Source of the DNA: Ignavibacteriales bacterium
GTDB lineage: Bacteria; Bacteroidota; Ignavibacteria; UBA10030; UBA8401
NCBI GenBank assembly: GCA_026390635.1
Contig: JAPLFO010000148.1
Span: forward strand, 60,080-124,079
Reading direction: 5' to 3'
DNA: 64,000 bases
This document shows, one piece after another, positions 1,858 through 46,688 of this stretch (positions within the stretch are counted from its first letter, which is position 1; the number at the start of each line of letters is the position of its first letter). The notes beneath the pieces are model-generated. The model worked only from the letters and a program-made list of their open reading frames with translations, made no database searches and had not been told where the DNA came from. The translations under genes were made by a program, and so were the position numbers.

Positions 1858-1910
1858 AAATATTTTACGTCTTGACACAAACACAATTTATCGAAATCGA
1901 GGAGACCGTT

Positions 1911-7822: not shown

Positions 7823-10507
7823 CTATCTCAGCAGCAGCATCTTCTTCATGAGAGAAGAGCCGTTCCATTCGAGCTTCGCCACGTAGATCCCGCTGGCAAA
7901 GCGCGACGCATCGAACGTCACATGATAAAATTCTCCGGCAGTTGCCGGACCGTCGAACAGCGTCGCCACTTTCTGGCCAAGCATATTGTAAACGACGACT
8001 GTTGCGCGAGTGTTTTCCGAGAGAACAAATTCCAGCGCAGTGGCGGGATTAAAGGGATTTGGATAATTTTGCGCAAGCATTGCGATCGATGGCATGACCG
8101 CCCTCTGCGAAACCACTCCCACCTGAATTTCGGGGAAATACGCTCGACGGACCAGCGTTGTATCCACAATAAACGGATTGGGCTTGCCGCTTTCATACTT
8201 CGCAATCAGAAACGTACGCGCATGTTCGAGCGAATCCACCGGATCCAGATAGTGCCAGCGGTAGATGGTGCTCAATTGGTTTCTGAAGAAGACTGGATCG
8301 GCAGCATCTGCTTGGCTCTTATACATCGTGTAGAAATAGCAGAGCGCGCGAGCGATGTTTCCTTTGTGATCGGCGCGGGGCTCAAAGATAACGCCGGACT
8401 TGACTTTGCTGTATTCTTCGATCAGCAGCGTAGGTTTGAATTGAGTTTTTGTTGTCAACCGGTACCAGTAGCTCACTTCATTGTCAGGAATATCGCCATA
8501 GGGATAGTTGCCGCGGTCACTGTTCACACCGATTTGCGTCGGGAAGAGATGATGCATATCGCTTTGCGCCTGACCACTGGCCCCCTTGGATTGCGGAAAT
8601 GTATGCTCCACGTTCAAACCGCTTCCGCCCGCTCCTTCATAACCGGTATACACGCAGCGCACATTGCTGTTGGGAAGTCTGTACACTTCGGCGAAGAGCG
8701 CCGGCGGCGGATATCCCTGCGTGGTGGAAGGTTTGTACGACGTGACAATGTTCGCCAGTAGTGTTGTTCCGCTCTGCCCTGCGAAGAGCACCTGCTGCGG
8801 CACCTGATACGCTGTCGCAGTAGTAAATACCGCGGTTGGGGAGTATTCGCTTGATCCCGCCGAGTTTGCCGCGCGGACATGCCAGTAATATTTTGTCTGC
8901 ATCTGTAACGGTGCAAGAACCATGCTGTTGCCGGTAATAGTAGAATCGTCCAGTACGGTCAATACAAAGTCTGATTGTAGCGATACTTGCACACGATACG
9001 ACGCCGCTCCCTGTACCGCAGACCAGTTTAGACGCGGAGTGACAGGTATGGAGGCCGATCCGTCCGCCGGAGAAATTGTTTGCGGCACTTCGGGAATGAT
9101 CGGCCCGTCCGACGGAATCGCCGTCGCGATCGGACTTCTCCAGAGCGCGGACCAGGACGAGCCGTTCCGCACGAAAACGCGAAATGCATACGAAGCAGCA
9201 TTCGTCAACCCCATAACCGTTACCGTGTCAGCGGTTCCCTTGTAGACAACATAGGTACCTGCACCAACCGACGTTCCCTGTCCAAAGAACGCGTTCGCTG
9301 TATAGGATGATCCGTTGCCGCTTGGAATTGCGCTGACATCTTTTCCTGATGCACCAACGATGACAACTTCATCCCAAAAGACCCCCTGCGGTCCCGCATA
9401 GTTCTGCCATTGTAGTTTGACGTGTCGGTTTCCAGTCAGCGTTACCAGATGTGCGACCCCATGCACTTCCGCAGTATCCATAATCACAGGTGTACCGGCA
9501 GAAAAACCTGTGTCTTTGTATGCGAACGATTTGAAATAATATTTCTTGTGTTCCAGCAAGCCGGTCACCGTCACGGCATTGTCGGTGCCGTTATAGACAA
9601 GCTTTGAAGCACCAAAAGCTGCTGCTTTCGGATAATCTGACGATGCTCCGAGTAATGTGTGCCCGGGCACCGTTGGTACAAAATCTACCGGCAGATCTTC
9701 GCGCACAAATACCAAGACCGAATCGTCTCCATAGGCAGGAGCCTCCCAGCCGATATTCATCGCGCTCTCGCTGACGTAATTGACGGAGAACAATCTCGGG
9801 TTCGGGACAAAAATGCCGTTTCCCGCCGACACGACGGAAATGTCGTCAAAACCGACGCTCGCGCTGGTTCCGGATTCCACTCCGCGCCAGACGGCCCAGC
9901 GCAGCTGCACGACCGGCTGGTTTCCTGCATCCGGCGGAAGAATCAGATCCGTGAAGACATCTTTCGCTCCCTGAAGGCGGTCGCTGTTCCCGTGGAAATA
10001 CAAAGATGCCGGAACCGTGGCCCAGACGCCGGTTGTGCCGACACGATACTGAAGGACTACACCGACCGATCGGGTAATATCAGAAATCGCAGTAATCGAA
10101 TAGCCGACTTTGACATTGATGATATCCGTTGTATTGATGGCGAGCGCCAATTGATCGACGCCGTTCGTTGCGTTGCCGCTTGTTTGGATATAGACTTGAG
10201 CATTCCCATTCGCCACATATCCATATGCTCCGCCGGCCTGTTGGATTATTGCCGCCGCCGTTATCGTTGCATTCCCTGTCGGTGCACTTGTTTCGGCGAG
10301 CACCTGCGTATTCACCACAGTACCGCTAATGCCGTTCCAGATCACAAAACCCGGCGGCATCGAGGTGAATCCCGAAGTTCCAAAGTCCTGAGAAACCGGA
10401 AGAGTTTGCGGCGTTGGATTTGTCTGTCCAACAAGGATCGAAGTAGAGAGCATGGCAGCGACACTTGCTGCCACAAAACAACGGAGGACGCGAACTAGTG
10501 ATCTCAT
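7823..10507 (-). CDS. Secreted endonuclease I family nuclease with FN3-like domains and a C-terminal T9SS sorting domain
   Basis: The block VEHTFPQSKG...DMHHLFPTQIGVNSDRGNYPYG matches the endonuclease I (EndA/Vvn) catalytic motifs EHxxP / DLHHLxP / NSxRGN. An FN3-like block follows (PRLNWSAVQGAASYRVQVS...YYWHVRA). The C-terminus NYPNPFNPATALEF...VYNMLGQKV...GIYVAKL...KKMLLLR is a type A T9SS domain. The start is set at MRSLVRVL..., which reads as a signal peptide. Confidence 0.75.
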   Translation of the reverse strand: MRSLVRVLRCFVAASVAAMLSTSILVGQTNPTPQTLPVSQDFGTSGFTSMPPGFVIWNGISGTVVNTQVLAETSAPTGNATITAAAIIQQAGGAYGYVANGNAQVYIQTSGNATNGVDQLALAINTTDIINVKVGYSITAISDITRSVGVVLQYRVGTTGVWATVPASLYFHGNSDRLQGAKDVFTDLILPPDAGNQPVVQLRWAVWRGVESGTSASVGFDDISVVSAGNGIFVPNPRLFSVNYVSESAMNIGWEAPAYGDDSVLVFVREDLPVDFVPTVPGHTLLGASSDYPKAAAFGASKLVYNGTDNAVTVTGLLEHKKYYFKSFAYKDTGFSAGTPVIMDTAEVHGVAHLVTLTGNRHVKLQWQNYAGPQGVFWDEVVIVGASGKDVSAIPSGNGSSYTANAFFGQGTSVGAGTYVVYKGTADTVTVMGLTNAASYAFRVFVRNGSSWSALWRSPIATAIPSDGPIIPEVPQTISPADGSASIPVTPRLNWSAVQGAASYRVQVSLQSDFVLTVLDDSTITGNSMVLAPLQMQTKYYWHVRAANSAGSSEYSPTAVFTTATAYQVPQQVLFAGQSGTTLLANIVTSYKPSTTQGYPPPALFAEVYRLPNSNVRCVYTGYEGAGGSGLNVEHTFPQSKGASGQAQSDMHHLFPTQIGVNSDRGNYPYGDIPDNEVSYWYRLTTKTQFKPTLLIEEYSKVKSGVIFEPRADHKGNIARALCYFYTMYKSQADAADPVFFRNQLSTIYRWHYLDPVDSLEHARTFLIAKYESGKPNPFIVDTTLVRRAYFPEIQVGVVSQRAVMPSIAMLAQNYPNPFNPATALEFVLSENTRATVVVYNMLGQKVATLFDGPATAGEFYHVTFDASRFASGIYVAKLEWNGSSLMKKMLLLR

Positions 10508-10728
10508 GAAGCAAAACTCCAAATTTGAATAGAGACGTTGAGTTAAATGTACTACCCAATTCCCTTCTTTCATAAACAAATCTTGGCAAAATTACGCTCC
10601 GCGGTAGAGAAACTGGACCACCTGCCCTTTCAGCAATTATGTTTTCCTGATGTTTTCGCAACTTACCGGGCTAAATCGGCGTAGTACAAAGGATTTCACG
10701 TACACTCACAATCAACAGCGCCGATTCC

Positions 10729-15436: not shown

Positions 15437-16702
15437 TTATTTTGCCACCAGCATTTTGCGTGCAGCCGAAAAAGATCCTGCAGTAAGCCGATAGAAATAG
15501 ACACCGCTTCGTAAGGTGCTCGCGTTGAATCGCTCTTCGTAATGTCCCGAAGCCCTCTTCCTGTCCACGAGCACCGCAACCTGACGACCAAGGCAATCAT
15601 ACACATGAAGCGACACATGTGTCGTTGTCGGTATGTCGAATGCAATCGTCGTTGAAGGATTGAAAGGATTCGGGTAGCACTGGTGCAATTCATATTCTGA
15701 GACGGTCACATTCCTCTTTTGTGTGATGGAAGTAGGCTGGCCGGCATATTTCAGAACATAACCGTCCGCCGCAGCAACCCATCCATAGTGGACACCGTTC
15801 ACCAGAACAAAACTCAGATGCCACAAACCTCTGGCAGCCTGCCGGTATTGCTCGATCCATGTCGCTCCCGCATCAGTGCTTCTATACACGGCTGAATCTC
15901 CTGTCGCCCAGCAATCACCGTTTTCGACGCCACAGACATTAAAGGTGCCGCTCATGAGTCTATTGTTCCAGGTCCATTGTGTTCCACCGTCGGATGTGCG
16001 ATAGAATCCGCTTGAAAACGCAACAACTCCTCGTAACGAATCAATGAACCAAATGCCATAACTGTCATCAAATGGGGCAGCTTTTGCAGTCCACGTCGTA
16101 CCTCGATCTGTTGACTGATAAACCCGGTGCCCGCCGCATCCGATAGTTCCAAACCATACAAATCTGCCATGGGCAACCGCTATTGAATTAATATGCCCTA
16201 CTTCACACTTGGGCATCTTAGGCGCCCCCTGAAGGAGGTTCCAGGTTAATCCGCCGTCGCTTGTCCGGATTATATGCCAGACTGAATCCAGCGGGTCGCC
16301 GACAGCAATGCCGTTGAGACGGTCGAACATCCTTATGCCATCGATAAACGTGCTGTCAGTGTACACGATCGTCCATGACCGGCCTTGGTCGGAGGAACGA
16401 TGGATAAACCTCATTTTGTTCTTTTCCGACGCTGCCAAAACTACGCCGTCAGTAGTCACTTCTATTGTCGGAAATGATCCGGAGATGCTTTTGTACCAGG
16501 ATGAGCCGCCATCGGATGTATTGAAAACGCCCGCGTTGCCGCATACCCAGGCAATAAGCGGGCTCACCGTCTTGACGGACCACGTGTATTGATTTTCTCC
16601 GATGTATTGTCTGTTCCAAACAGTGGACTGCGAGAGAAGTGTGTGGACCCCGGGCGCAGCAATGAAGAGAAAAAATGCAATCATTCTTCTGGGAGAGGAC
16701 AT
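15437..16702 (-). CDS. BNR/Asp-box repeat beta-propeller protein with a C-terminal T9SS sorting domain
   Basis: Six SxDxGxTW-type repeats (TSDGGSSWY, SSDQGRSWT, TSDGGLTWN, STDRGTTWT, TSDGGTQWT, STDAGATWI). The C-terminus CYPNPFNPSTTIAFDIP...VYDCLGRQV...GVYFYRLTAG...KMLVAK is a T9SS domain. Confidence 0.7.
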   Translation of the reverse strand: MSSPRRMIAFFLFIAAPGVHTLLSQSTVWNRQYIGENQYTWSVKTVSPLIAWVCGNAGVFNTSDGGSSWYKSISGSFPTIEVTTDGVVLAASEKNKMRFIHRSSDQGRSWTIVYTDSTFIDGIRMFDRLNGIAVGDPLDSVWHIIRTSDGGLTWNLLQGAPKMPKCEVGHINSIAVAHGRFVWFGTIGCGGHRVYQSTDRGTTWTAKAAPFDDSYGIWFIDSLRGVVAFSSGFYRTSDGGTQWTWNNRLMSGTFNVCGVENGDCWATGDSAVYRSTDAGATWIEQYRQAARGLWHLSFVLVNGVHYGWVAAADGYVLKYAGQPTSITQKRNVTVSEYELHQCYPNPFNPSTTIAFDIPTTTHVSLHVYDCLGRQVAVLVDRKRASGHYEERFNASTLRSGVYFYRLTAGSFSAARKMLVAK

Positions 16703-16823: not shown

Positions 16824-19115
16824 CTATTTCACAACAAGCATTTTCTTCGCTGCTGAATACGCTCCGGCAGTCATACGGTAGAAATAGACGCCGCTTCCCA
16901 AGCGTCCGGCATCGAATCGTTCTTCATAATGTCCCGGAGACTTTTTTCCATCTGCAACGGTTGCAACGTGCCTGCCAAGACAATCATAGACGACAAGAGA
17001 AACATACGCTACTGTTGGAACGTCGTAAGTAATTGTCGTTGCCGGATTAAAGGGATTGGGATAGTTCTGATTCAGGCGAAACTCTTCTGGATAGCCGGGT
17101 GATGACACTCTCACTGCGGTAAATGCTGCAATTGCATTTTGCATGACGCTCCCAGCATCATAGATGTGCGCATAGTTCGGATCCTTGTCTGGTGACGCGT
17201 ATGTCACGTTCGACGTATCGCTTCTGAAATTGCAGGAAAGATAGTCAAACGCGAGAAATATCGTATGCCAGGAATTGTCCGGAGCGTCTTTGCGAACACC
17301 CACTGTGCGCGTGCCGTCTGTGAAAAGTATTTTTGCGTCAGCCGTGGGCTTCAATTCATCCATCCAGTTCAATGCCGGAGGAATTTCATAATTGGGATGG
17401 TACCAGAACGACCCTCCATTTTTGTTTGCATATTGCCGAATGAAACCAAATAACTGGTCCGTCGAATCCTGCGGGGTGATCTTCCACGGCCACGTTACGT
17501 TGATACCCGTGAAGGCATAGTCTTGCGGTCCAATTAATTGTAGTCCGAAATATTTATTATGCGGATCATCGGCTCCAAAACCCTCGCCGTAGCCGCCAAT
17601 GAATCCGTGATCCTGGTCGGCGAGAAGATAGGTTTTTTGTCTCTGGGCAGTCCCGGACGAAAGCCATGCTGCGGCCTTTCCGGTCAGGTCTGCATATCCG
17701 CCGTCCCCTGTCGCTTCAAACACGATATCATAATTGTTGAGAAGATCGGAAACTTCCGCCGCTCCTTCTTTTTTTACGTCCCAAACGTCATAATATTGTT
17801 TCGCATCGATGCCGGCTCTTTTCATATACTTGGCGGCCAGAGAACTGACGGATGCGCCCGTCGGAAGAGAGCGACCGTTCCACAGACAAAGATACTTCGA
17901 ACCCGGCCGGAATATTTGATAGGAATACGTCGGAGCCGTTTGTGTGAGATTATGCATATCGGTCGCTACAACGAAATAGTATACCGTATCACCCGGATTT
18001 GCTGCCGGCAATGTGCCGGCATAGTTCGGCGGTGTCCCCGACATTGCAGACTTGACATACGCGCCGCCATTTATCTTTGCATACAGCTCAACAGATTTGA
18101 GCCCGCCGGGACCATCTGATCGGATAGTCGCGGTGACTGTCCGCGGCGACGTCTTCAATGTCGTTGAGAGCCGCTGCAGCGAAATCTTTGGAGGCGGCGT
18201 CTCCCAGTATTCAACGATAGCGTACCACTTCCATTCATGGGCGCGGATTTGCCAGCCGTAGTTGCTGGTTGGCGTTCCTTCATAGAATTTGATGGAATGG
18301 TACGGATAGCCGAGCGAGGAAAACGCAGCAAGTGTCAATGGTGTGTCGAGGGGAGCGGCCGGGCTGCTTGAGACTTCCGACATATTTTGTACTGTAAATC
18401 CAAATGGAATTTGTTTTCGGAAAGGCATCGAATCGGGAACAGCTTTGTGCCATTGCCCTGCAACAAGATCGACATCAATCCCGTGGTTGCCGGAAATCAG
18501 GAATTCTTTTCCCAGAGGATCGAATGTCACTTCTGAAGCGGCCTTCCCTTTTACAAATGCCGTGTCGGTTGCTTCGTCCCAAAATGGAGTCTTGAGGCCG
18601 TCACCGTCGGTCGAGCATTTGTAGAAGCCCATGTTGCCGTTCGTATCTGTCCCGGAAGTTGAAAACGCCGTTGCGGGAAGGGAGACAATGCGCGGGTCCA
18701 TGTTCCATGCCCGAACCCGCGCGCGATGATTCAGTCCGACCGTATAGCCGGCCGCCGTTTGAAACCAGATCTCCCGCACAATGCCATCAGATTCGGGCAG
18801 ATACCACTGCAGCGCGACATCCTTGTGCGTGAATGAGAATGCCGTATTTGTGGCCGCACCCGATTTATCATACACGAAGAGAGTATCAATTGGCCAGGAA
18901 TGCGGTGACAGATTGAAGAGCCCGCTTTCCCGCCCGATGATCACATCGGCCGGTGATTCCATCCCACGGAGAGGAAAGACTTCCTGATTGCCGTGCGAAT
19001 CAATGCGCACAACGGAGCGACCGGAATTCTGCGCTAGCGCAAAAGATGCCAACGACAGGAAAAAGACACATGCCGCAGTCATAATGGAATGTTTTGATCG
19101 AAAGATCGGTTTCAT
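16824..19115 (-). CDS. Large secreted protein of unknown function with a C-terminal T9SS sorting domain
   Basis: The C-terminus NYPNPFNPATTITYDVP...VYDCLGRHV...GVYFYRMTAG...KMLVVK is near-identical in type to the neighbouring T9SS domains. The start is trimmed to MKPIFRSKHSIMTAACVFFLSLASFALA, a signal peptide whose ATG is at 19115. Confidence 0.6.
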   Translation of the reverse strand: MKPIFRSKHSIMTAACVFFLSLASFALAQNSGRSVVRIDSHGNQEVFPLRGMESPADVIIGRESGLFNLSPHSWPIDTLFVYDKSGAATNTAFSFTHKDVALQWYLPESDGIVREIWFQTAAGYTVGLNHRARVRAWNMDPRIVSLPATAFSTSGTDTNGNMGFYKCSTDGDGLKTPFWDEATDTAFVKGKAASEVTFDPLGKEFLISGNHGIDVDLVAGQWHKAVPDSMPFRKQIPFGFTVQNMSEVSSSPAAPLDTPLTLAAFSSLGYPYHSIKFYEGTPTSNYGWQIRAHEWKWYAIVEYWETPPPKISLQRLSTTLKTSPRTVTATIRSDGPGGLKSVELYAKINGGAYVKSAMSGTPPNYAGTLPAANPGDTVYYFVVATDMHNLTQTAPTYSYQIFRPGSKYLCLWNGRSLPTGASVSSLAAKYMKRAGIDAKQYYDVWDVKKEGAAEVSDLLNNYDIVFEATGDGGYADLTGKAAAWLSSGTAQRQKTYLLADQDHGFIGGYGEGFGADDPHNKYFGLQLIGPQDYAFTGINVTWPWKITPQDSTDQLFGFIRQYANKNGGSFWYHPNYEIPPALNWMDELKPTADAKILFTDGTRTVGVRKDAPDNSWHTIFLAFDYLSCNFRSDTSNVTYASPDKDPNYAHIYDAGSVMQNAIAAFTAVRVSSPGYPEEFRLNQNYPNPFNPATTITYDVPTVAYVSLVVYDCLGRHVATVADGKKSPGHYEERFDAGRLGSGVYFYRMTAGAYSAAKKMLVVK

Positions 19116-19350
19116 CGTACACATTGTACTCATCGTTGAGACCAGACAGACATTTCCGGGTATTGCCCGGCTGGAAGCGGCAGTCGGGTCAGCCCTGTGC
19201 CGTCCTTCCAATGCATATGACTACGGTAGCGTATTCATTGGTAAGAATCAACCGGTAACTGCTGTCAATCACAAAAGGGAGAGGTGACGACACCTCGGCC
19301 GACATGGCGAGCAACGCCGAGCCACGCTCGGTGACCGTCGAGCAAATACA

Positions 19351-20064
19351 TCACTTCTCCAATTGCGCCAATCCTGCAGACGCCACGTAGACATGTGCCG
19401 CTCCGGCTTGTTTGAGGACGGCCGCGGCTTCCTGCAACGTGGAACCGGTGGTGATGATATCATCTACCAGCAGGAATGTGCGGTCTCGAATTGCAGACGC
19501 ATCCCCCGATATCGTAAACGCTGCTTCAATATTATGTTTTCGCTGATCTGCCGTCAGATGTGTTTGCGTCACGGTGTTCTTCACTCTTCGGAGAAGAGAT
19601 GGCATGATCGCGGTGTGGAGCAATTCGTGAATCCCGCGACATATATGTTCACTTTGATTATAGCCCCGTTCGCGCAGCCGCACAGTGTGCAGGGGCACGG
19701 GAACGATTCCATCAATAGTGAGATCATGCGGAAGAACAGCAGCGAGCCTTCGTCCGAATTCCACACCGCACCAGGTAACACCTTCGTATTTAAGCGCATG
19801 GGCAAGCTTCTGAAAAACACCGCCGTGCTCAAAATAGCAGTAGGACCAGAAGCCGTCAATGGCGCCGCCAAGGGCAAAGCGCCCGGAGAGTATTTTGTGC
19901 GTATCATCATTTTCAGAAACGAGGGAAAGCGAACCCCAGCAGAGAGGACAAACGCGCACCTCACCGTCGCGGAGACGCTCATTGCAGGAAAAACAAAGAG
20001 GCGGAAATAGAAAATCCCGCAGCGGCTGCAGCCGCCGCCCCACCCAGGAAACGACATCCCCCAT
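19351..20064 (-). CDS. comFC: ComF family protein (ComFC-type phosphoribosyltransferase with an N-terminal zinc ribbon)
   Basis: LCFSCNERL...CPLCWGSL is the double CxxC; the PRTase motif is FLLVDDIITTGSTLQEAAAVL. The start is set at MGDVV so that it overlaps the stop of the upstream ATPase by 3 nt. Confidence 0.7.
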   Translation of the reverse strand: MGDVVSWVGRRLQPLRDFLFPPLCFSCNERLRDGEVRVCPLCWGSLSLVSENDDTHKILSGRFALGGAIDGFWSYCYFEHGGVFQKLAHALKYEGVTWCGVEFGRRLAAVLPHDLTIDGIVPVPLHTVRLRERGYNQSEHICRGIHELLHTAIMPSLLRRVKNTVTQTHLTADQRKHNIEAAFTISGDASAIRDRTFLLVDDIITTGSTLQEAAAVLKQAGAAHVYVASAGLAQLEK

Positions 20065-20065
20065 A

Positions 20066-21757
20066 TCACCCCAAGACGCGGAAGTATTCCTCAACAGAAA
20101 TGATGCCGCTGACGAGTTTTTTCGCGGCATCGAAACGAATCGATTCGAATCCTTTGGAGCGCGCAACTTCCTTCAATTTCATCAGAGACGCCTGCTGGAA
20201 AATCAAATCGCGCATTTCATCGTCGACGATCAGGACCTCATGCAGCGCTGTACGTCCCAGATAGCCGTCGCCGCCGCACTTGGTACATCCTTTGCCGCGA
20301 TACAGAATCATAGAACCGACAAGTTGTTCCAATCCCGCCGTTGCCAGAATTCGATGGGATGGCGTGTATTCTTCTTTGCAGTAGCGGCACACTTTGCGTG
20401 CGAGTTGCTGATAGACGATGCCGCTCAATGTCGGTGCCAGCCAGCCAGGCGAAATTCCCAGGCTTGTCAATCGGGGAATAGACGACAGCGCATCGCTCGA
20501 GAGCATCGTGCTAATGACCAGATTGCCGGTCAATGCCGCCTCGGCAGCAGCGACACCGGTTTCCGCATCGCGTATTTCGCCGAGCATAATAACATCCGGA
20601 TTTTGCCGCATAATGGCGCGAATTGCGTTGGCAAAATCGAGTTTCGAATCCACGTCCACCTGTACCTGACCGGCAAATTCGAGCCGGTATTCCACCGGAT
20701 TTTCCACGGTCATCACAACTTTTTGTGATGCGCGGAGTTCGTTGATGCCGGCATAGAGGGTGGATGTTTTCCCGCTGCCGGAGGGTCCCGCGACGAGCAA
20801 CAATCCGCGCGGCCGACGGAGAAGGTACTGCACCTTCGACAGATTTTCCGCCGATAGTCCAAGATCGTGAATGTTCAACAGGCGCGAGCTTTTGTTCAGA
20901 ATTCTGATCGCAGCACGCTCACCGTCGAGCGTCGGCACCAGGCTGACCCGAAAATCAAATGTGCGTTTCGCAAACGTTGCAGAGAATCGACCATCCTGCG
21001 GTTTCTTCTTTTCAAATGAATTGATACCCGCGCGCGCCTTGATGATGTTCAGCAGATTCTCATACAATTCTTTCGGCAACGCCACCAGATGCTCGATGAC
21101 ACCGTCGTTGTTCAGGCGCACACGCAGCGAGACGTCGGTGGGTTCGATGTGAATATCCGTCGCGTTGTTCTTGATACCGCGCAGCAGGATTTCTTCAAAA
21201 AGCGCTTCTGCACCGGGAACCTTGCCTGCCCGCTGCAGTTCCGCAAAACGACCCGGTCCCGCTTTCTGACTATCGAGCGCTTCGAAATTGATTTTCGACG
21301 GAAGAAGCTTAATCTCGTCGAAACCGGACGGCTCGCTGTGGGCGATCGAATTATAGGCGGACAATGTGATCGCGACCGGCACAATGAACATTTTCACGTC
21401 CTGACGCAACATGTCAACGAGTTGCTTTGCGGGCGGATTGATGAAGCCGACCGTGAGTTCGACGCCCGAGGAAAGGATCGGAACGATCCGGTATTTCTGC
21501 AGCACAACATCCGGAAACAGCTTCGGCGGGGCCGTGATAAGTTCCGGGGACAGCACTACAAACGGAATTTGAAATTCGCGGGAGAGAACGTCGGCAACGA
21601 CGTCGTCGCTGACGTCCAGCTGTTCGACCAGGATTTCGGCTGCGCCCTCCGTCTGCGATTCTTTCAGCAGCCGGTTGAACTTTTCGTAGCGCACTTTGTC
21701 CAGGTATCCCTGGGTCAGGAGCGCTTTGCCGAGCCGTATGTCTTCTTCCTGCAGCAT
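20066..21757 (-). CDS. GspE/PilB-family secretion ATPase, paralog 1 (T2SSE_N domain, AAA+ core, tetracysteine)
   Basis: 563 aa. Walker A VAGPSGSGKTSTLYA; C-terminal CRYCKEEY...CTKCGGDGYLGR zinc motif; N-terminal GSPII_E_N-like domain. Confidence 0.85.
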   Translation of the reverse strand: MLQEEDIRLGKALLTQGYLDKVRYEKFNRLLKESQTEGAAEILVEQLDVSDDVVADVLSREFQIPFVVLSPELITAPPKLFPDVVLQKYRIVPILSSGVELTVGFINPPAKQLVDMLRQDVKMFIVPVAITLSAYNSIAHSEPSGFDEIKLLPSKINFEALDSQKAGPGRFAELQRAGKVPGAEALFEEILLRGIKNNATDIHIEPTDVSLRVRLNNDGVIEHLVALPKELYENLLNIIKARAGINSFEKKKPQDGRFSATFAKRTFDFRVSLVPTLDGERAAIRILNKSSRLLNIHDLGLSAENLSKVQYLLRRPRGLLLVAGPSGSGKTSTLYAGINELRASQKVVMTVENPVEYRLEFAGQVQVDVDSKLDFANAIRAIMRQNPDVIMLGEIRDAETGVAAAEAALTGNLVISTMLSSDALSSIPRLTSLGISPGWLAPTLSGIVYQQLARKVCRYCKEEYTPSHRILATAGLEQLVGSMILYRGKGCTKCGGDGYLGRTALHEVLIVDDEMRDLIFQQASLMKLKEVARSKGFESIRFDAAKKLVSGIISVEEYFRVLG

Positions 21758-21802
21758 AGTTTCGTTCTGTGATTGATCCGGACTGCGTTCGTTCGCCGGG
21801 AG

Positions 21803-22120
21803 CTATTGAAACAACTTGTCAACATCCAATTGCGAAATACTCACCCGCTTGCTTGCTTTAATCGTGTGGTGCTGCAGATCCAGAAGCTGCAGCAACTCCT
21901 GTTCAGAAAAGTGTGCGGCGCTTTCGACAAACTCCTCCACAGGACGGCGCTTCACCAGGGAACCGATACGCAGCAACGACTGTCCGCAACCGCCGCAATA
22001 CATGTCTGTTGTCGCGTTGATAAACGTACACGAATGCCTCACCGCGTGCAGTTTCGTGCTGCACGATGTGCATACCATCTCGCTTCGCCCATTATCCCTT
22101 TTGCAGTGGTGACAAATCAT
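21803..22120 (-). CDS. Small double-zinc-ribbon protein (105 aa), paralog 1
   Basis: MICHHCKRD...CTSC...CGGCGQ gives four CxxC pairs, with a helical C-terminal tail ...SISQLDVDKLFQ. The start overlaps the stop of the receiver gene (ATGA). The order is conserved with the paralog at 24255-24572. Confidence 0.55.
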   Translation of the reverse strand: MICHHCKRDNGRSEMVCTSCSTKLHAVRHSCTFINATTDMYCGGCGQSLLRIGSLVKRRPVEEFVESAAHFSEQELLQLLDLQHHTIKASKRVSISQLDVDKLFQ

Positions 22121-22512
22121 ACCTTATTCTCTTGAAGGTCGAGCACGCGGCGAACCACTTCCATCAATTTTTGTGACGAATACGGTTTGATCAGATAGTA
22201 ACTGGCACCGCGCAATTTTGCCTCCTGCACAACTTCCGGCGTCGAAATCGCCGAAATCATGATGACTTTTGCCGCCGGATCAAAGCTCCGGATCTGGGCC
22301 AGCACTTCCATACCGGGGAGTTTCGGGAGCATATTGTCCAGAAAAACCACCGTCGGCCTATGCTCTTTGAACATTGCCACGCCGGCTTCTCCGTCGGTGG
22401 CCTGTTGTACTCTGGTCACTCCCTCTTTTTTTAGGAGCATTGACAGCAATGCCCGGACGTGCTCGGAATCGTCAACAATCAGGGCGGAAATTTTTTCGCA
22501 GTTTGGCAGCAT
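22117..22512 (-). CDS. Single-domain response regulator (CheY-like receiver), paralog 1
   Basis: ALIVDDSEHVR...VFLDNMLPKLPGMEV...KVIMISA... The start is set at MLPNCEK (ATG 22512) because a strong gaggagagagg SD precedes it; the ORF-track start at 22539 has no SD. Confidence 0.75.
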   Translation of the reverse strand: MLPNCEKISALIVDDSEHVRALLSMLLKKEGVTRVQQATDGEAGVAMFKEHRPTVVFLDNMLPKLPGMEVLAQIRSFDPAAKVIMISAISTPEVVQEAKLRGASYYLIKPYSSQKLMEVVRRVLDLQENKV

Positions 22513-22549
22513 ACCTCTCTCCTCAAACGTCAATTTCATTCGTACGAGA

Positions 22550-24253
22550 CTATATTCCCGTGCGTGTCACGCGCTGTACTTCTTCCAGTGTTGTCAATCC
22601 GGCCAACACTTTTTTCAGGCCATCGAAGCGCAGGTCGCGGAATCCGTCCTTCTCCGCCTGTTGCAGAATCTTAATCGTCGTGGCATTCTGATAGATAAGG
22701 TCCTGAATCGCTTCGTTGACACTCAGCACTTCATGAATAGCGATTCTCCCCTTGAATCCGCGGAAGCCGCATTTAGTACAGCCGACACCCCGGAAGAAAG
22801 TCACACGTTTATGAAGGCCGATGAGTCCGTTCACATACAACATTTCTTCATTGGGCTCATATTCTTCCTTGCACTCGTCGCAAATACGACGCACAAGACG
22901 CTGACCGACGGCTCCGATCAGCCCTGGAGCGAGCCAATACGGCGGAATGCCCATGTTGATTAGTCTGGGAATGGCGCCCACCGCATCGTTGGTGTGCAGT
23001 GTGCTCAAAACGAGATGCCCCGTCAGAGCCGCTTCCGTTGCGATGGTGCCGGTTTCGCCGTCGCGAATCTCGCCGACCAGTATGATGTTCGGATCCTGCC
23101 GGAGGATGGCACGCAGCGCGCTTGCGAACGTGAGATCCTTCTCCGGATCGACCTGTACCTGGTTGACCGTATCCACCTGATACTCAACCGGATTTTCAAT
23201 CGTCACAATATTCCGTTCGACTGATTTTACTCTATTGAGCGCTGCGTAGAGTGTTGTGCTCTTGCCGCTTCCGGTCGGCCCGGTTACAACCAGCAAGCCG
23301 TTTGGCTGTTTCAAAAGATGCAGGAGTACGGCAAGATTTTGTGACGAGAATCCCATCTCTTCCAGCTTCACTGCTATCGAGCTCTTGCTGAGAATACGGA
23401 GTACCGTTTTTTCGCCGTTGACCGTCGGAATCACACTGACACGCATATCGAACGAACGCGTCTCGTATGTCAGCGTGATGCGCCCATCCTGCGGCTTCCT
23501 TTTTTCGAACATATCCATCGACGCTTTGGTCTTGATGACCGCGATCATTCCTTCCCCGAATTTCTTCGGGAAAGAGGCAATGCGCTGCAGCACGCCGTCC
23601 GTACGGAAGCGCAGCTTCACTTCGTGTTCGAATTGCTCCAGATGGATATCGCTCGCGCCGCACTTGACTGCGCGCAAGAATATCTCGTCCACCAAGCGAA
23701 CCAACGGCGGAAATTGTCCGAACTCCTCCATTCGTGCAAGTTCCACTTCTCCGGTCTTGATAACGTCGAATTTTTCCAGATCGATCGTACTGGCAATTCT
23801 TTGGATATCATCGAAACCGCCGCGCTGGATCGAAAGCGTTTCCTGAAAATCGGTGAGTGTCGAGACGACCGGTACAATCCGCGCCTTCGTCATCTTGGTC
23901 AGCTCTTCGATCATCGTCCGGTATGGCGGATCGACAATCGCCACCGTCAGTTCGTTGCCAAGGAGAAACATGGGGATGACACGGTGCTGTTTCAGAAACG
24001 CATCGGAGATAATTTCTTTCGGCGCGGAGGCAGTTTCCGAATAGAGCCGCATGAAGGGAAGATTGAATGCATCGCTGAACGCATCGGCAAGGTCAAATTC
24101 GGAGAAGAATTTGAAATCCACCAAGGCTTGTGCGAACCCGTTCGCCATGCCGTGATTGTTGACCAAGTCCTCAAATTGCCGCCATTGCGCATCGGTCAGC
24201 AGTTTTTGGGCAATGCAATATTCCCGGAAGTGAAGATCTTCTTTGGAAAACAT
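22550..24253 (-). CDS. GspE/PilB-family secretion ATPase, paralog 2
   Basis: 567 aa. Walker A VTGPTGSGKSTTLYAALN; C-terminal CDECKEEY...CTKCGFRGFKGR; N-terminal T2SSE_N-like domain. Confidence 0.85.
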   Translation of the reverse strand: MFSKEDLHFREYCIAQKLLTDAQWRQFEDLVNNHGMANGFAQALVDFKFFSEFDLADAFSDAFNLPFMRLYSETASAPKEIISDAFLKQHRVIPMFLLGNELTVAIVDPPYRTMIEELTKMTKARIVPVVSTLTDFQETLSIQRGGFDDIQRIASTIDLEKFDVIKTGEVELARMEEFGQFPPLVRLVDEIFLRAVKCGASDIHLEQFEHEVKLRFRTDGVLQRIASFPKKFGEGMIAVIKTKASMDMFEKRKPQDGRITLTYETRSFDMRVSVIPTVNGEKTVLRILSKSSIAVKLEEMGFSSQNLAVLLHLLKQPNGLLVVTGPTGSGKSTTLYAALNRVKSVERNIVTIENPVEYQVDTVNQVQVDPEKDLTFASALRAILRQDPNIILVGEIRDGETGTIATEAALTGHLVLSTLHTNDAVGAIPRLINMGIPPYWLAPGLIGAVGQRLVRRICDECKEEYEPNEEMLYVNGLIGLHKRVTFFRGVGCTKCGFRGFKGRIAIHEVLSVNEAIQDLIYQNATTIKILQQAEKDGFRDLRFDGLKKVLAGLTTLEEVQRVTRTGI

Positions 24254-24254
24254 A

Positions 24255-24572
24255 TCAACCGAATAGTTCGTCGATAGAGATCTGTGACAGATTCTTGACT
24301 TTCTTTCGTGATGTAAGACGCAGGCGTTCTTCCATCAGCTCACTCAGAATCGCTTCACTAAACTGGGTGATGTGCAGAATACGCATCTGCTCCCCACGGG
24401 CGATGATGGCAGACAACCCCGTGGGAATCGGCGTGCCGCATTTTCCGCAATAGCGATAGTGGAGCGGATTGCCGTGTTGACACACCGTACAACGCCATCC
24501 GAGTTCCGATTCACATTCCACACATCGGAATGGCGGATCAATATAAGTGTGATTGCATTGTTGGCAGGTCAT
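24255..24572 (-). CDS. Small double-zinc-ribbon protein (105 aa), paralog 2
   Basis: MTCQQCNH...CVECE...CTVCQ...CGKCG gives four CxxC pairs, with a C-terminal tail ...LSQISIDELFG. Same length and position as the 21803-22120 gene. Confidence 0.55.
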   Translation of the reverse strand: MTCQQCNHTYIDPPFRCVECESELGWRCTVCQHGNPLHYRYCGKCGTPIPTGLSAIIARGEQMRILHITQFSEAILSELMEERLRLTSRKKVKNLSQISIDELFG

Positions 24573-24574
24573 TG

Positions 24575-24934
24575 TCAGATCAGTTCATAACGATGAAGAA
24601 TTTCGCGGATCTTTTCGGCGACATAGGGTTTGAGAATATATGCGTTAGCTCCCGCAGCTTTCGCCTCAGCCACCTGATCCGAAGCGGAAATCGAGGTTAC
24701 CATCACCAAAATTGTTTTCATATCACTTTTGCGGATTTCCCGAACAGCTTCCACACCGCTCATTTTCGGCATAATATAGTCGAGAAAGACTATATCAGGA
24801 TGAAACGTTTTGAATTTTTCCACCCCGGATTCGCCATCGTCGGCCAGTTCCACCGTCATTTCCATCCGGCGTAACATTGCAGACAGAACCGAACGATTAT
24901 AAGGGGAATCATCTATTACCAGGGCTTTTTTCAA
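24575..24934 (-). CDS. Single-domain response regulator (CheY-like receiver), paralog 2
   Basis: MKKALVIDDSPYNRSVL...IVFLDYIMPKMSGVE...LVMVTS...; first gene of the operon. Confidence 0.8.
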   Translation of the reverse strand: MKKALVIDDSPYNRSVLSAMLRRMEMTVELADDGESGVEKFKTFHPDIVFLDYIMPKMSGVEAVREIRKSDMKTILVMVTSISASDQVAEAKAAGANAYILKPYVAEKIREILHRYELI

Positions 24935-25010
24935 TTTGACATCGCAATTGTTGTTATTCTTCGCCGTAGTATACTCAGAATATTCTTTGAAATCAATAAA
25001 AGCGGAACAT

Positions 25011-38615: not shown

Positions 38616-39903
38616 ATGATGCGAAATGGACACATTCTTCTCCTCTATTTGTTTGTCGTCGCCAGCACTGCCTCATCTCAGGAAGTGCTCATTCCATTCG
38701 ACACGCTGAAGCGCATCGACCGAATTGACGAGGGGACTTTTTCGGCTTCCCGATTCGACATATGCATGTGAAGTCTGGTACCGTGCAAACGGCCAGATTT
38801 TGAAATCAAGAACGCTTTTGTCGGCGGCGGAAGCGCAGCGCTTTCAGCAGCGCGTGGCCGAATCGCTGCGCCGGCTCGCTCCGATGGCTGGAATCGATCA
38901 AAGCGGACGGCCAACATTTCTCGGTGGTGCTTACACGCTCTCCCTCGGCCTCTACGGCTGGGGAATTCCCTATCTGCTCGGAATGGAGGGCAGTGCCGCA
39001 ATTGGAACTTACCTTCTCATCAGTGCCGGCGGCATTTTGATCGCACATTCAGCAACGGAGAGAATGGAGATTTCCGAATCAACTGCCAATCTTTCTTTCT
39101 ATGGATCGATGATGGGACTCGCACATGGCGTCATGGTCGCCATCATTGTGGGGAACAATGAAAAGATGGGCAAGGGATATGTTTCCTCTGCGATGATTTT
39201 TTCCACTCTGGAAGGAATTCTTGGATATCAGACCGGTAAGAGACTCAAGCTCTCCGGGGGCGGTGTTGAAATGCTGGGCACAATGAGCGGCGCGGGCCTT
39301 TTGTACGGATATGGCATATCGTCGCTTATGGATCAGACCAGCGCCCGGTCCATCTCGACATCGATGCTCATTGGTTCCGTTGTCGGCACAGCTGCCGGCA
39401 TGTTGATGGTGAAGGATGACTCGTACACGAACGGAGATGTCGGCGTGTTCCGCGGAGCGGCTATGCTTGGTGCATATGTGCCCATTTCCATTCTCCTTGC
39501 GGCGCATGTAGACAATTCAAAGACCTTCGTCAGCACGGCGATGATTGGAGGTCTCATTGGCGGAACTATCGGCAACTATCTTGTGAAAGGAAAGGATTTC
39601 TCAACCGCTGAAGGGACCTACATTATGTTCGGAGCTTTCGGCGGCATGTTGATCGGAGGAGGAATTCCGTTCATCGCGGGAGCGAACGGTGAAGTGGCGG
39701 CCGTGTTTAGTGCGGTCGGTTCGCTTGTCGGCTTTGTGGCAATGTATCAACGGTATGCGCCGGAAGCGGGTCAGAGAGCAACAGGCAGTTCGTTGTCATT
39801 TCAGGTGCATCCGGAGGGACTGGCTGCCATGTCGATGAGGCCGACCCTCTCTCTTCAAAATCAATGGACGACGTCGATTGTGAGTTTATCGTACCGATTC
39901 TAA
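38616..39903 (+). CDS. Hypothetical glycine-zipper-rich secreted/membrane protein; the reading frame is interrupted by one extra T in a T5 run at about 38745
   Basis: Frame 3 from ATG 38616 encodes the signal peptide MMRNGHILLLYLFVVASTASSQEVLIPFDTLKRIDRIDEGTF and stops at 38768. The long ORF (frame 1, TTG at 38725) continues RLPDSTYACEVWYRANGQ... Deleting one T from ggggactttttcgg joins the two seamlessly. Confidence 0.45.
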
Positions 39904-40131: not shown

Positions 40132-41379
40132 CTACACCCACCCCCGCAACTTGCATGCTTCCGCAACGCGCGCAACACCAACCACCATTGCGGCCAGTCG
40201 CGGATGGACGCGTTTCTGAACCATCGCCTGCTGTACGGAGTGGTACGCCTTCGTCAGTTTCTGATCGAGACGTTTGTGCACCAGATCTTCGTCCCAGAAG
40301 TACGAGTAACTGTCCTGCACCATTTCAAAATACGACACCGTGACGCCTCCCGCGCTTGCAAGAATATCGGGGATGACGTGCACTCCTTTGCGGAAAAGGA
40401 TCAGATCAGCCTCGGGCGTCGTGGGGCCATTGGCGAGCTCACAGACGATTTTCGCCTTGATTTTCTCGGCATTCAACTCCGAAATCGCATTTTCAAGCGC
40501 CGCCGGGTATAACACGTCCACGTCGAGCTCCAGAATTTCTTCGTGCGAAATCTGCTGCGCGCCCGGAAAACTGCGCACCGTTCCGGTTGTCAGTTTGTGT
40601 GTCACGAGATCTTTCGGATTGAATCCGTCCGGATTGTAAATGGCACCGCGCGAATCGCTGACGGCCACCAGTTTTCCCCCACCGAGAATTTCTTCATGCA
40701 GCAGCGCGGCGCGCTGTCCGGCGTTGCCGAATCCCTGAATGGCATACCGCCCGTGCGGATTCACATCGAGAATCTTACACGCCTCGCGCACGGTCGTCAC
40801 ACCGCCGCGGGCGGTCGCATCGCGCCGTCCTTCCGTACCGCCGATCTGCAACGGCTTGTCCGTAAACACACCGGGTTGATGCCGATGGACGATGGTTTCA
40901 TATTCGTCCATCATCCATGCCATTGTCTGTGGATTGGTATAGACGTCCGGCGCAGGAATGTCTTTTTCCGGGCCGATGTATTCTGCTACGGCGCGGATGT
41001 AGGCACGCGAGAGATTTTCCAGCTCGCGTTCAGAAAGTTTTTTGGGATCGCAGACAACGCCCCCCTTGCCGCCGCCAAGAGGAAGATCCACCACCGCAGT
41101 CTTCCACGTCATCCAGCTCGCAAGAGCGCGGATGATGTCCACGGTCTCGTCCGGATGAAAGCGGATACCGCCTTTGGCCGGGCCGCGCGCGAAATTGTAC
41201 TGGATCCGGTAGGCGTGAAAAATCTTCACCGATCCGTCGTCCATTTTTACCGGAAGCGTGCAGGAAAATTCCCGCTGCGGATAGCTCAGTAACTCGACCG
41301 TTGCGCGATCAAGGTTCAGCAGCTTTGCCGCTTCCGCAACCTGCTTTTGAGCGACATGAAAAGAATTATACGATTCCAT
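40132..41379 (-). CDS. Glu/Leu/Phe/Val dehydrogenase family, 415-aa glutamate dehydrogenase type
   Basis: ...[43 protein letters not shown]...; the NAD(P)-binding GFGNAG motif. Confidence 0.85.
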
Positions 41380-41423
41380 AGTCTTTGCCTTTTTGATCGC
41401 TGATTACTCAGATTTATGGATTG

Positions 41424-41588
41424 AGACGTCTGAAAAACCATCGCGGATTGTCATTCTGAGTCGCGCAGCGACGGAGAATCCATCGTTGTGATCTGAAAAC
41501 AACAAATGGATTCTTCGCGGAGCTTGTGCTGAGCGGAGCCGAAGCGCTCAGAATGACCGGCATCCAGGAGTTTTTCAGAAGTCTCGGA
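41424..41588 (-). repeat. MITE-like palindromic element, family A, copy 2 (inverted relative to copy 1)
   Basis: Its reverse complement matches 31520-31683 with 3-4 mismatches over about 165 bp. Confidence 0.8.
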
Positions 41589-41687
41589 TTACACAGCGTA
41601 TTGGTATTTATGTCTTCATCTTCGTAATCTGCGATCCATTTATTTGGCTGCAGTGCTGTTCCATTAAGTTGAATTATGAATTCTCTG

Positions 41688-41783
41688 CCCGCTTCGCCGA
41701 GCTCAGCGAGGCGAGTGCTCTCTTCTTTTTCTCTGTGCGTCACCCCGAGCGAGTGAAGCGAGTCGAGGGGCTCTGTGGCATAT
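41688..41783 (-). repeat. Intergenic repeat, family C, copy 1 (about 95 bp)
   Basis: Its reverse complement is about 95% identical to 46596-46688 (gccacagagcccctcgactcgcttc.ctcg.tcggggtgacgcacagagaaa...agagagcactcgcctcgctgagctcggcgaagcgg). Confidence 0.75.
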
Positions 41784-41805
41784 CTCTTACTTTCCATTTT
41801 ACGAT

Positions 41806-42018
41806 TCACTTGTTTTCTTGCGGTGGTAGTTGGTCGTCATGCGTGGACCGTCCCGGCGTTTCATCGCGTACATCCAGAATGATACGGTACCAGCAGTTCT
41901 TGCACATCAGCGCTTTGTCGACACTCAGCAGCACCTGTTCCCAGCGGCTCAGCTTATGCCCGCAGTGCGGACATGCTTCGTGCGATTTCTGCTTGTGAGG
42001 GGATTCACCGTTGCTCAC
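41806..42018 (-). CDS. Small zinc-ribbon protein (70 aa), speculative
   Basis: CPHCGHKLSRWEQVLLSVDKALMCKNC gives CxxC...CxxC. It overlaps the 3' end of the disrupted PPDK_N gene by 14 nt. Length and overlap make it weak. Confidence 0.3.
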   Translation of the reverse strand: MSNGESPHKQKSHEACPHCGHKLSRWEQVLLSVDKALMCKNCWYRIILDVRDETPGRSTHDDQLPPQENK

Positions 42019-45003: not shown

Positions 45004-45140
45004 AGTACAAAAGACCTGACAGGTGTTTATAGCAAGCGTCCGACACCTCCTTGATTCGCAATGGCTGCTGATGCTATCAATATTTCAAAATAGAAGCCAG
45101 CGTTCTACGGAAGAGATGTCGGACACTTTGCGACACGCTA

Positions 45141-46547
<1,407 letters not shown>

Positions 46548-46595
46548 TCAGAGCAAATCTGACCGCTCTGATTAAATCATGAAAGAAAGACTTTG

Positions 46596-46688
46596 CCACA
46601 GAGCCCCTCGACTCGCTTCGCTCGTTCGGGGTGACGCACAGAGAAAGAGAAGAGAGCACTCGCCTCGCTGAGCTCGGCGAAGCGGACG
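46596..46688 (+). repeat. Intergenic repeat, family C, copy 2
   Basis: See 41688-41783. CACAGAG/CTCTGTG heptamers follow immediately at 46703-46742. Confidence 0.75.

Follow-up and report, generated by a model that had tools for sequence, protein, structure and literature searches.

Within a 64,000-nucleotide stretch of DNA from an Ignavibacteriales bacterium (GenBank assembly GCA_026390635.1, contig JAPLFO010000148.1, positions 60,080 to 124,079 of the forward strand; this whole stretch is called the window), seven co-directional genes on the minus strand, at 19351-24934, carry the same three-gene module twice. Each module, or triad, consists of a CheY-type receiver (REC), a 105-residue double zinc-ribbon (DZR) protein and a PilB/GspE-family ATPase of about 565 residues; a gene for a ComF-like phosphoribosyltransferase (PRTase) follows the second module. 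All seven open reading frames (ORFs) are present. The triad recurs across bacterial phyla, its receivers retain the features of an intact CheY, its zinc-ribbon protein ends in a peptide that shares its identity with the tails of CheZ proteins, and the ATPase of the second module has lost the His box. On balance, each triad is probably a phospho-dependent control module for a motor ATPase of the PilB type, that is, the extension type of type IV filament systems.

Recurrence of the triad

A receiver, a zinc-ribbon protein with the C-terminal tail (a DZR-tail protein) and an ATPase with the T2SSE domain were found together, whatever the flanking genes or the gene order, at each of the 19 fetched loci with a gene for a DZR-tail protein, a set that is not a random sample of the roughly 200 clusters of the DZR family. 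These loci belong to Ignavibacteriales, Myxococcota and Thermodesulfobacteriota, i.e., to at least three bacterial phyla. A preliminary description, made from the letters of the window alone, had seen in the zinc-ribbon protein a conserved partner for the ATPase, and this neighborhood check, with its PilB-like ATPase and receiver at every locus in three phyla, supports the idea.

Double modules with unrelated flanks are present in Ignavibacteriales or 'Bacteroidota' metagenome-assembled genomes (MAGs), at loci L001, L003, L005/L006, L007/L008, L009, L012 and L135. L005/L006 come from the window's own species, and the second DZR gene of L135 is present though it was not called as a gene. Single triads occur on other Ignavibacteriales-like contigs (L133, L134 and L136/L137); that of L133 is wedged between glycoside-hydrolase genes. 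A search with the ATPase of the first module (ATPase1) returned two tiers of relatives, at 66-91% and about 50% identity, and the contexts taken from both have a receiver gene and a DZR gene directly upstream. In a neighbor-joining tree, the single-triad ATPases fall outside the clade formed by ATPase1 and the ATPase of the second module (ATPase2), which therefore places the duplication within one Ignavibacteriales lineage.

Triads were also found in Kofleriaceae/Myxococcales and in a 'Deltaproteobacteria' MAG (L010/L011, L030, L034, L051 and L072). A DNA-pattern scan of 185,579 species genomes for the tail sequence Q-D-D-x-D-x-L-F-G matched at least 120 loci, and its DZR-tail loci are L030 and L034 (Kofleriaceae), L051 (Myxococcales), L072 (the 'Deltaproteobacteria' MAG) and L125 (Thermodesulfobacteriota). 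The ATPase gene adjoins the DZR gene in all five, the receiver gene does so too wherever the sequence reached, and CheX follows the ATPase in three. In a Kofleriaceae genome, the REC-DZR-ATPase set lies inside a cluster with a kinase containing Hpt and HATPase_c domains, two further receiver proteins and CheX, and genes of these kinds flank the triad in Myxococcota. Gene order is kinase, REC, DZR, ATPase at the P0031 locus, and it is permuted to DZR-ATPase-REC in a divergent subfamily (P0070/P0307; loci L138 and L139). The stop codon of the receiver gene overlaps the start codon of the DZR gene in the window and in most of its relatives; in L138 and L139, it is instead the DZR and ATPase genes that overlap. 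A separate pair of T2SSE and T2SSK genes lies 6 kb from the triad in L138.

A HATPase_c kinase of about 419 residues (non-CheA), which has a Cys-rich N-terminal sequence, CGTSEFCRACG, is encoded divergently from the triad in L133 (7689-8945) and L136 (573-1832), and it is a candidate cognate kinase. In L134 (9677-9999), the DZR gene is split into ORFs of 55 and 52 residues, the first without cysteines and the second retaining the tail FSQNDLDSIFN; this split points to decay of the gene or, alternatively, to a frameshift introduced in a long-read assembly.

The receivers

REC1 and REC2 match Pfam Response_reg (E 8e-27 and 2e-26, respectively), and their closest solved structures are all CheY proteins (6er7, 1tmy and 4iga), with the top match of REC1, 6er7, being an archaeal CheY. 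The acidic pocket, the phospho-accepting Asp, the Thr/Ser, the Lys and the equivalent of Tyr106 are intact in these stand-alone receivers, and D8, D9, D52, T80 (Ser in REC2), Y99 and K102-P103 are kept across 13 aligned triad receivers. The NCBIfam CheY models give the best or second-best match, yet the scores lie below the cutoffs of these models. Judged by their residues, the receivers are intact and of the CheY type, and not degenerate like that of FimX.

The zinc-ribbon protein and its C-terminal tail

Members of the zinc-ribbon pair straddle the gathering score of the Pfam DZR family (27.3 bits): DZR1 lies just over it (27.8 bits, E 3e-6), and DZR2 lies just under it (25.4 bits, E 1.6e-5). 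DZR1 contains four CxxC motifs, and the second ribbon of DZR2 reads HxC...CxxC. Searches with Pfam and NCBIfam detected neither a CheZ, CheX or CheC catalytic domain nor a PilZ domain in these proteins. Five relatives of DZR1 were recovered by a word-index protein search and 26 by a profile search. An exhaustive hidden Markov model search of 1.84 billion representatives, with clustering at 50% identity, gave 202 clusters at E<=1e-10, whose members are mostly 100-125 residues long and are matched over their full length. The family has a common layout: two CxxC...CxxC ribbons within the first ~50 residues, a variable and often Pro/Ala-rich linker, a short 'ELxxLL' helix and the tail, for which the consensus is Φ-(S/T)-Q-(D/E)-(D/E)-(I/L)-D-(K/R)-L-F-G. 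Among 150 listed representatives, there were no natural REC-DZR or DZR-ATPase fusions, and the long profile matches were multi-ribbon proteins of a generic kind that lack the tail.

Alongside the zinc-ligand cysteines, the tail ranks with the best-conserved parts of the family. In alignments of 27 and 23 sequences, which were independent of the motif, the Q, D and F of the tail and most of the zinc-ligand cysteines are invariant and the L is nearly so, at a mean column identity of 41-43%. A set of 118 small family members, chosen for the tail motif, has the Q in 118, the D in 113, the F in 116 and the L in 97, at a mean column identity of 30%. An AlphaFold2 (AF2) model of DZR1, built from the 23-sequence alignment, assigns residues 1-50 to the ribbons, 64-71 to a disordered stretch, 73-93 to a helix and 97-104 to a second, short helix. 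Thus, the zinc-ribbon protein contains a terminal S-Q-(D/E)-x-(I/V/L)-D-x-L-(L/F) pattern that is modelled as a helix behind a low-confidence linker. The tails of the window proteins, NLSQISIDELFG in DZR1 and SISQLDVDKLFQ in DZR2, match the pattern of the CheZ/FliM type, and DZR tail peptides include KNLSQISIDELFG and VSISQLDVDKLFQ. This tail, which the preliminary description had not reported, is the most informative of the features added here; the other is the His-box loss of ATPase2.

The C-terminal helix of CheZ tethers it to CheY. The matches listed from the pattern scan are mostly proteins of 170-450 residues that end in SQDDID(A/K)LFG and contain FEACxFQD(I/L)TGQR, the CheZ active-site signature; among these listed matches, most are CheZ genes or chance matches, and five are DZR-tail genes. 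All five of the tail-bearing proteins that were tested against Pfam CheZ passed its gathering score, including those of Melioribacteraceae and Kapaibacterium, which are relatives of the window's lineage. When one such CheZ is aligned to E. coli CheZ in the CheY-CheZ complex (PDB 1KMI), its VSQDDIDDLF falls on ASQDQVDDLL (residues 200-209). A comparable peptide is found in FliM, whose N-terminal EIDAL(L) motif binds phosphorylated CheY (CheY~P) in the alpha4/alpha5 groove (PMC9126983; PMC6946799).

Some CheZ homologs (L038, L096, L106, L079, L088 and L093) carry 2-5 tandem copies of SQDDIDALF in the C-terminal region, with four in a Hyphomicrobiales MAG and five in Terasakiella. This arrangement suggests multivalent capture of CheY by tandem docking peptides.

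The motor ATPases

Both ATPases match Pfam T2SSE and MshEN (ATPase1, E 3e-126; ATPase2, E 6e-98). All of the expected motifs are present in ATPase1: Walker A (GPTGSGKST), ENPVEY, GEIRD, the His box (TGHLVLSTLHTND) and a CxxC...CxxC zinc site. The zinc site, as CxxC...GCxxC, is kept in ATPase1, ATPase2 and all of the orthologs; the C-terminal tetracysteine zinc motif of extension-type ATPases is described as essential (PMC11656802).

Several comparisons bear on the kind of motor. TIGR02538 PilB is the top NCBIfam model for ATPase1, with an end-to-end alignment. ATPase1 aligns over its full length with M. xanthus PilB; over the core, its alignment with GspE/EpsE is of about the same quality, and GspE/EpsE is also the best full-length PDB match by score (391 bits). 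In the PDB, the N-terminal 150 residues of both ATPases find PilB/PilF N-domains alone, and GspE N1 domains are not among the matches. For the N-domain of ATPase1, the best match is that of X. citri PilB in the entries for the PilB-PilZ-FimX complex (7LKM/7LKN/7LKO), and the extra ~80 N-terminal residues typical of PilB/MshE are present in the triad ATPases. By sequence, the triad ATPases are PilB-like and form a separate clade, outside the PilB equivalog of type IVa pili.

In the MshEN domain, cyclic di-GMP (c-di-GMP) is recognized through a tandem motif, RLGxx(L/V/I)(L/V/I)xxG(L/V/I)(L/V/I)xxxxLxxxLxxQ. The RLG motif of this type is not kept in ATPase1 (HFREYCIAQKLL). At the N-terminus of ATPase2 (RLGKALLTQGYL), RLGKALL aligns to RLGELLV of Geobacter PilB, and the orthologs vary at this position (RLA, RIS).

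In ATPase2, both His-box histidines are replaced (TGNLVISTMLSSD), and Walker A, the Asp box and Walker B are kept. The same loss is seen in 7 of 7 ATPase2 orthologs, which read TG[NT]..[ST]TMLS[ST]D, and the ATPase of every single triad is canonical. Because its orthologs are still 54-85% identical to the window copy, ATPase2 has been maintained, presumably with its hydrolysis altered or lost.

The ATPase1 ortholog of L012 (7475-9169) has degenerate motifs: Walker A is GPPGSGKSS, the Asp box AEHPVAF, Walker B SEISD and the His box TGTLILGTLNAND. A close relative in L135 is canonical in its motifs. To judge from these motifs, the L012 protein may represent a second, independent case of catalytic decay.

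Proposed mechanism and alternatives

In the proposed scheme, a histidine kinase encoded outside the window would phosphorylate the stand-alone CheY-like receiver; elsewhere, this role would fall to the HATPase_c kinase next to the triad or to a CheA-like kinase of the Hpt type. The phosphorylated receiver would then bind the short C-terminal helix of the zinc-ribbon protein, LSQxxIDxLF, a peptide of the same kind as the C-terminal docking peptide of CheZ and the N-terminal docking peptide of FliM. The zinc-ribbon/helix body would sit on the ATPase, probably on its variable N-terminal domain, which is the site of PilZ in Xanthomonas. In this way, CheY~P would be recruited to the motor and would change its activity, assembly or localization. 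The ATPase of module 1 is catalytically canonical. ATPase2, under its own CheY input, would probably have little or no activity of its own and act as a regulatory partner, or else be a subunit of a hetero-oligomer. Every physical contact in this scheme is inferred, as are the sign of the regulation and the kind of machine involved. For the steps from peptide docking onward, the grounds are the conserved gene neighborhood, the translational coupling, the company of Che genes in Myxococcota, the CheZ-like nature of the tail and the precedents in other systems. In its effect, the triad looks like a 'split' regulator of the PatA type, which keeps the output domain and CheY on two proteins and connects them by a docking peptide. 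With two CheY inputs and one canonical and one His-box-less ATPase, the duplicated module also recalls the arrangements of two motors described for PilB/TfpB (PMC11656802).

A number of findings weigh against this interpretation. Beyond the make-up of the sample of 19 loci, both ATPases score below the curated cutoffs, with 537.6 bits (ATPase1) and 397.5 bits (ATPase2) against 675.65 for TIGR02538 PilB, and 513.4 and 396.0 bits, respectively, against 630.25 for TIGR02533 GspE. Except for the T2SSE and T2SSK pair of L138, no filament-machine genes were found near the triad in any fetched locus. No ATPase-holding region was identified in the DZR protein, and the AF2 model of DZR1 has only moderate confidence, with a mean predicted local distance difference test (pLDDT) score of 67.6. 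The lysine in alpha5 of CheY that touches FliM is K119 in E. coli numbering; in REC1, aligned by eye, its equivalent is hydrophobic, and a different conserved lysine, K108, lies one turn earlier. Because of this substitution and this shift, the docking geometry of the receiver may differ from that of the FliM/CheZ type.

Alternative readings concern the role of the zinc-ribbon protein, the identity of the machine and the meaning of the tail. The receiver could act on the ATPase directly, as phosphorylated PixG does when it binds PilB1 in Synechocystis without a separate adaptor (PMC11181946), and the zinc-ribbon protein would then be a buffer, competitor or sequestering tether for CheY~P that tunes the lifetime of the signal. 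Such a role would fit a tail of the same type as that of CheZ, whose function is to capture CheY~P, as well as the failure to identify an ATPase-binding surface. It is nevertheless unlikely: no catalytic domain of CheZ, CheX or CheC was detected in the protein, the surroundings of the triad in Myxococcota include dedicated CheX genes, and the DZR gene always adjoins the ATPase gene, even when the receiver lies on the other side (L138/L139). In addition, the ribbon body and the central helix have been conserved between phyla, and this conservation implies that the protein binds something else as well. To regard the tail's likeness to CheZ and FliM as a coincidence, with the tail binding something else such as the ATPase or a polar landmark, is very hard to sustain. 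The motif is short (~9 residues), other systems also use acidic-hydrophobic C-terminal tails, and the pattern scan also matched unrelated proteins internally, but 6-7 specified positions are held in common with CheZ tails, the motif stands at the extreme C-terminus in both families, and a CheY-type receiver is alongside in every one of the 19 loci.

The triad ATPases could also power a machine like that of type II secretion, or serve as signaling or scaffold ATPases with CheY input and no pilus. In favor of this are the lack of adjacent pilin, PilC and PilMNOQ genes at every locus, the GspE/EpsE protein at the top of the full-length PDB scores, the missed PilB and GspE cutoffs, and the second T2SSE beside T2SSK in L138, which makes the triad ATPase of that locus an extra paralog; moreover, M. 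xanthus PilB is reported to act as a signaling protein in the control of exopolysaccharide (PMC5544727). The PilB/MshE-typical extension, N-domains that resemble PilB/PilF and not GspE N1, and the end-to-end match to TIGR02538 as top NCBIfam model argue the other way, and this reading is also improbable.

Last, the seven genes could be a dedicated operon for competence or DNA uptake, with two competence-pilus ATPases and ComF, as the preliminary description had suggested from the ComF-like gene together with a secreted endonuclease I. The ComF-like gene starts 1 nt past ATPase2 and shares the terminator-like hairpin, and three lineages whose flanks differ (L001, L005/L006 and L007/L008) have it behind the double module; in Synechocystis, comF mutants lose both transformation and piliation. 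Since these are the only loci in which it follows the module, the gene lies outside the conserved core: it is absent beside the double modules of L003, L012 and L135 and at all single-triad loci. The protein, which matches Pfam Pribosyltran and an N-terminal DZR_2 domain, scores 84.5 bits with TIGR00201 comF (cutoff 233.55) and 93.6 with GntX (cutoff 304), and comEC, comEA, dprA and pilin genes were not found near the unit among the scanned window ORFs. The endonuclease I gene, 9 kb away, does not recur in the flanks of L003, L007/L008, L012 or L135, the four more distant double-module lineages whose fetched flanks reach past the module; the L009 contig ends just past ATPase2, and the fetched flanks of the close relatives L001 and L005/L006 stop short of its position. 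A competence operon is hence a poor prospect, and the suggested linkage to the endonuclease is weak.

The control-module interpretation can be carried further, though as a tentative idea that is somewhat more doubtful than not. The triad may be an unrecognized, widespread output branch of CheY, in which a zinc-ribbon adaptor reuses the CheZ/FliM peptide and plugs CheY~P into a motor of the type IV filament family; in Ignavibacteriales, this branch would have been duplicated into an active motor and a pseudo-motor without the His box, each with a private CheY. Such a pair could work as a two-input switch (e.g., extension versus stalling) or as hetero-hexamers.

Relation to known systems

It is already known that a receiver can steer a PilB-type motor by protein contact. 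The system to which the preliminary description likened the layout, FimX-PilZ-PilB of Xanthomonas and Pseudomonas (PMC11656802), has in common with the arrangement proposed here a small adaptor on the N-domain of PilB that links it to a REC-containing signaling protein. The analogy holds for an adaptor on PilB, and it fails in two other respects. The proposed adaptor is a double zinc ribbon and not a PilZ domain, and the partner is a stand-alone, phosphorylatable CheY, not a c-di-GMP sensor with a degenerate REC followed by PAS, GGDEF and EAL domains; therefore, the input would probably be phosphotransfer and not c-di-GMP. Searches with Pfam and NCBIfam found no PilZ, GGDEF or EAL domain in any of the seven proteins.

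In the cyanobacterial Tax/Pix systems, Che-type phosphorylation of a CheY-like receiver likewise governs the extension ATPase of the type IV pilus (T4P) by direct contact: PixG and PixE are PATAN-REC regulators that bind PilB1/PilC (PMC11181946; bioRxiv 10.1101/2021.06.11.447907). There, the PATAN output domain is fused to the receiver; here, the zinc-ribbon protein is separate and no PATAN domain was found. In archaea, CheY~P reaches a motor of the type IV filament family through a dedicated adaptor, in the order CheY-CheF-ArlCDE/ArlI (PMC9126983). CheF, which is unrelated to the DZR protein, forms a PH-domain dimer and contacts CheY close to alpha1 and the loops of the active site, whereas the DZR tail predicts docking of the FliM/CheZ type on alpha4-beta5-alpha5. 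The C-terminus of CheZ and the N-terminal EIDAL of FliM/FliN resemble the DZR tail in their S-Q-D/E-x-I/V-D-x-L-L/F pattern, in a short helix (here modelled) after a flexible linker, and in a CheY gene beside; they differ in that the putative peptide of the triad is on a zinc-ribbon protein beside an ATPase of the secretion superfamily, not on a phosphatase or a flagellar switch. Finally, Acinetobacter baylyi PilB and TfpB, with the inhibitor CpiA, provide a case of two diverged extension-type ATPases and a small protein acting selectively on one, in a DNA-uptake context (PMC11656802). The triad ATPases are not TfpB (419.5 bits for ATPase1 and 315.7 for ATPase2, against a cutoff of 850), each of them has its own pair of CheY and DZR proteins, and ATPase2 lacks the His box.

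The PilB cofactors treated in a 2024 review are c-di-GMP/MshEN, cAMP/Pil-Chp, PilZ-FimX, CpiA, phage peptides and second motors, with no CheY and zinc-ribbon partner among them. Full-text literature searches on zinc ribbons with PilB/GspE, CheY or response regulators, Ignavibacteria, CheX and Myxococcota likewise returned no description of the triad. This outcome agrees with the preliminary description, which did not recognize the arrangement as a described system.

Gene layout and surroundings

The coordinates of the unit are collected in Table 1. The receiver of each window module overlaps its DZR gene in an ATGA sequence, the gaps between DZR1 and ATPase1 and between ATPase2 and the ComF-like gene (ATG at 20064) are 1 nt, that between DZR2 and ATPase2 is 45 nt, and that between ATPase1 and REC2 is 10 or 37 nt, depending on the start of REC2. 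For this start, the ATG at 22512 is more likely than 22539, because a ribosome-binding site (GGAGAGAGG) precedes it and because the orthologs have 131 residues. The two modules are old paralogs whose similarity is far beyond chance: ATPase1 and ATPase2 are 41% identical (E 7e-162), REC1 and REC2 42% (E 4e-32), and DZR1 and DZR2 25% (E 2e-6), with a full-length alignment of the last pair.

Table 1. Features of the seven-gene unit, in window coordinates
Feature	Position	Strand	Size and remarks
Promoter-like site 5' of REC1	24968-24996	minus	TTGATT-17-TATACT, 9/12; consensus match only
REC1, CheY-type receiver, module 1	24575-24934	minus	119 aa; TTG start
DZR1, double zinc ribbon, helix and C-terminal tail, module 1	24255-24572	minus	105 aa
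DZR1 C-terminal tail NLSQISIDELFG, residues 94-105, putative CheY~P-docking peptide	24258-24293	minus	
ATPase1, PilB/GspE-family hexameric motor ATPase, canonical motifs	22550-24253	minus	567 aa
REC2, CheY-type receiver, module 2	22117-22512 (ORF reaches 22539)	minus	131 aa
DZR2, zinc-ribbon protein, module 2	21803-22120	minus	105 aa
DZR2 C-terminal tail SISQLDVDKLFQ	21806-21841	minus	
ATPase2, PilB-like paralog without both His-box histidines	20066-21757	minus	563 aa
ComF-like phosphoribosyltransferase, N-terminal zinc ribbon, last gene of the unit	19351-20064 (ORF to 20166)	minus	237 aa
Terminator-like hairpin GAGGTGTCGTCACCTC with T-rich tail	19281-19296	minus	55 nt past the ComF-like gene; consensus match only

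Several claims of the preliminary description concern this layout. Its domain assignments agree with the Pfam matches of the seven proteins (Response_reg, DZR, T2SSE with MshEN, and Pribosyltran with DZR_2), its reading of an ancient, diverged tandem duplication agrees with the paralog identities, and the absence of nearby pilus structural genes was confirmed among the scanned window ORFs. Its account of the spacing (1-8 nt or ATGA) is right for the two REC/DZR overlaps and the two 1-nt gaps and wrong for the gaps before REC2 and ATPase2.

A scan of 37 large ORFs revealed no pilin, PilC/GspF, PilMNOQ, secretin or che gene in the 64-kb window, and no kinase for the receivers among the scanned ORFs. 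A standard T4P operon was rejected, as no structural gene was found nearby among these ORFs. An anti-phage defense system was considered with PADLOC and rejected, as the matches are partial only: P-loop or receiver-like for the ATPases and receivers, PRTase for the ComF-like protein; the DZR proteins gave no match. It is only through its PRTase domain that the ComF-like protein matches the PADLOC models ShosT (E 6e-12) and PsyrT, with no ShosA/DprA-like neighbor.

Upstream of the unit is uvrB, and the remaining window encodes proteins sorted by the type IX secretion system (T9SS), efflux pumps, peptidases and metabolic enzymes. T9SS C-terminal sorting domains are present in three minus-strand proteins: an FN3 and endonuclease I protein (7823-10579), a BNR/sortilin-like protein (15437-16702) and a 795-residue protein without any other Pfam domain (16824-19211). 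At 40132-51225, also on the minus strand, three Glu/Leu/Phe/Val dehydrogenase paralogs (40132-41379, 45141-46502 and 49885-51225) alternate with two large proteins (42643-45003 and 46796-49810) that combine a receiver with PPDK_N, a phosphoenolpyruvate-utilizing, AMP/ATP-binding domain; this repeated layout is unusual. The plus-strand ORFs 1872-3242 (456 residues) and 38725-39903 (392 residues) have no Pfam match at E<=1e-5, and the first, which overlaps a minus-strand ORF, may not be a gene.

Significance

The chemosensory route to motors of the type IV pilus type is known in a few model organisms, and it differs in each: PilG/PilH and FimX-PilZ in Pseudomonas and Xanthomonas, PATAN-REC proteins in cyanobacteria and CheF in archaea. 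If the proposed reading of the triad is true, Ignavibacteriota, Myxococcota, Thermodesulfobacteriota and unassigned metagenomic lineages would have arrived at a compact solution of three genes, and about 200 clusters of 'hypothetical zinc-ribbon proteins' would gain a function. The docking motif of CheZ and FliM would then be in use beyond flagellar systems, and the reading would offer a testable hypothesis, namely that a 10-residue peptide binds BeF3-activated CheY. Furthermore, ATPase2 and its orthologs would be an example from nature of a PilB paralog with altered catalysis that has been kept over long evolutionary time.

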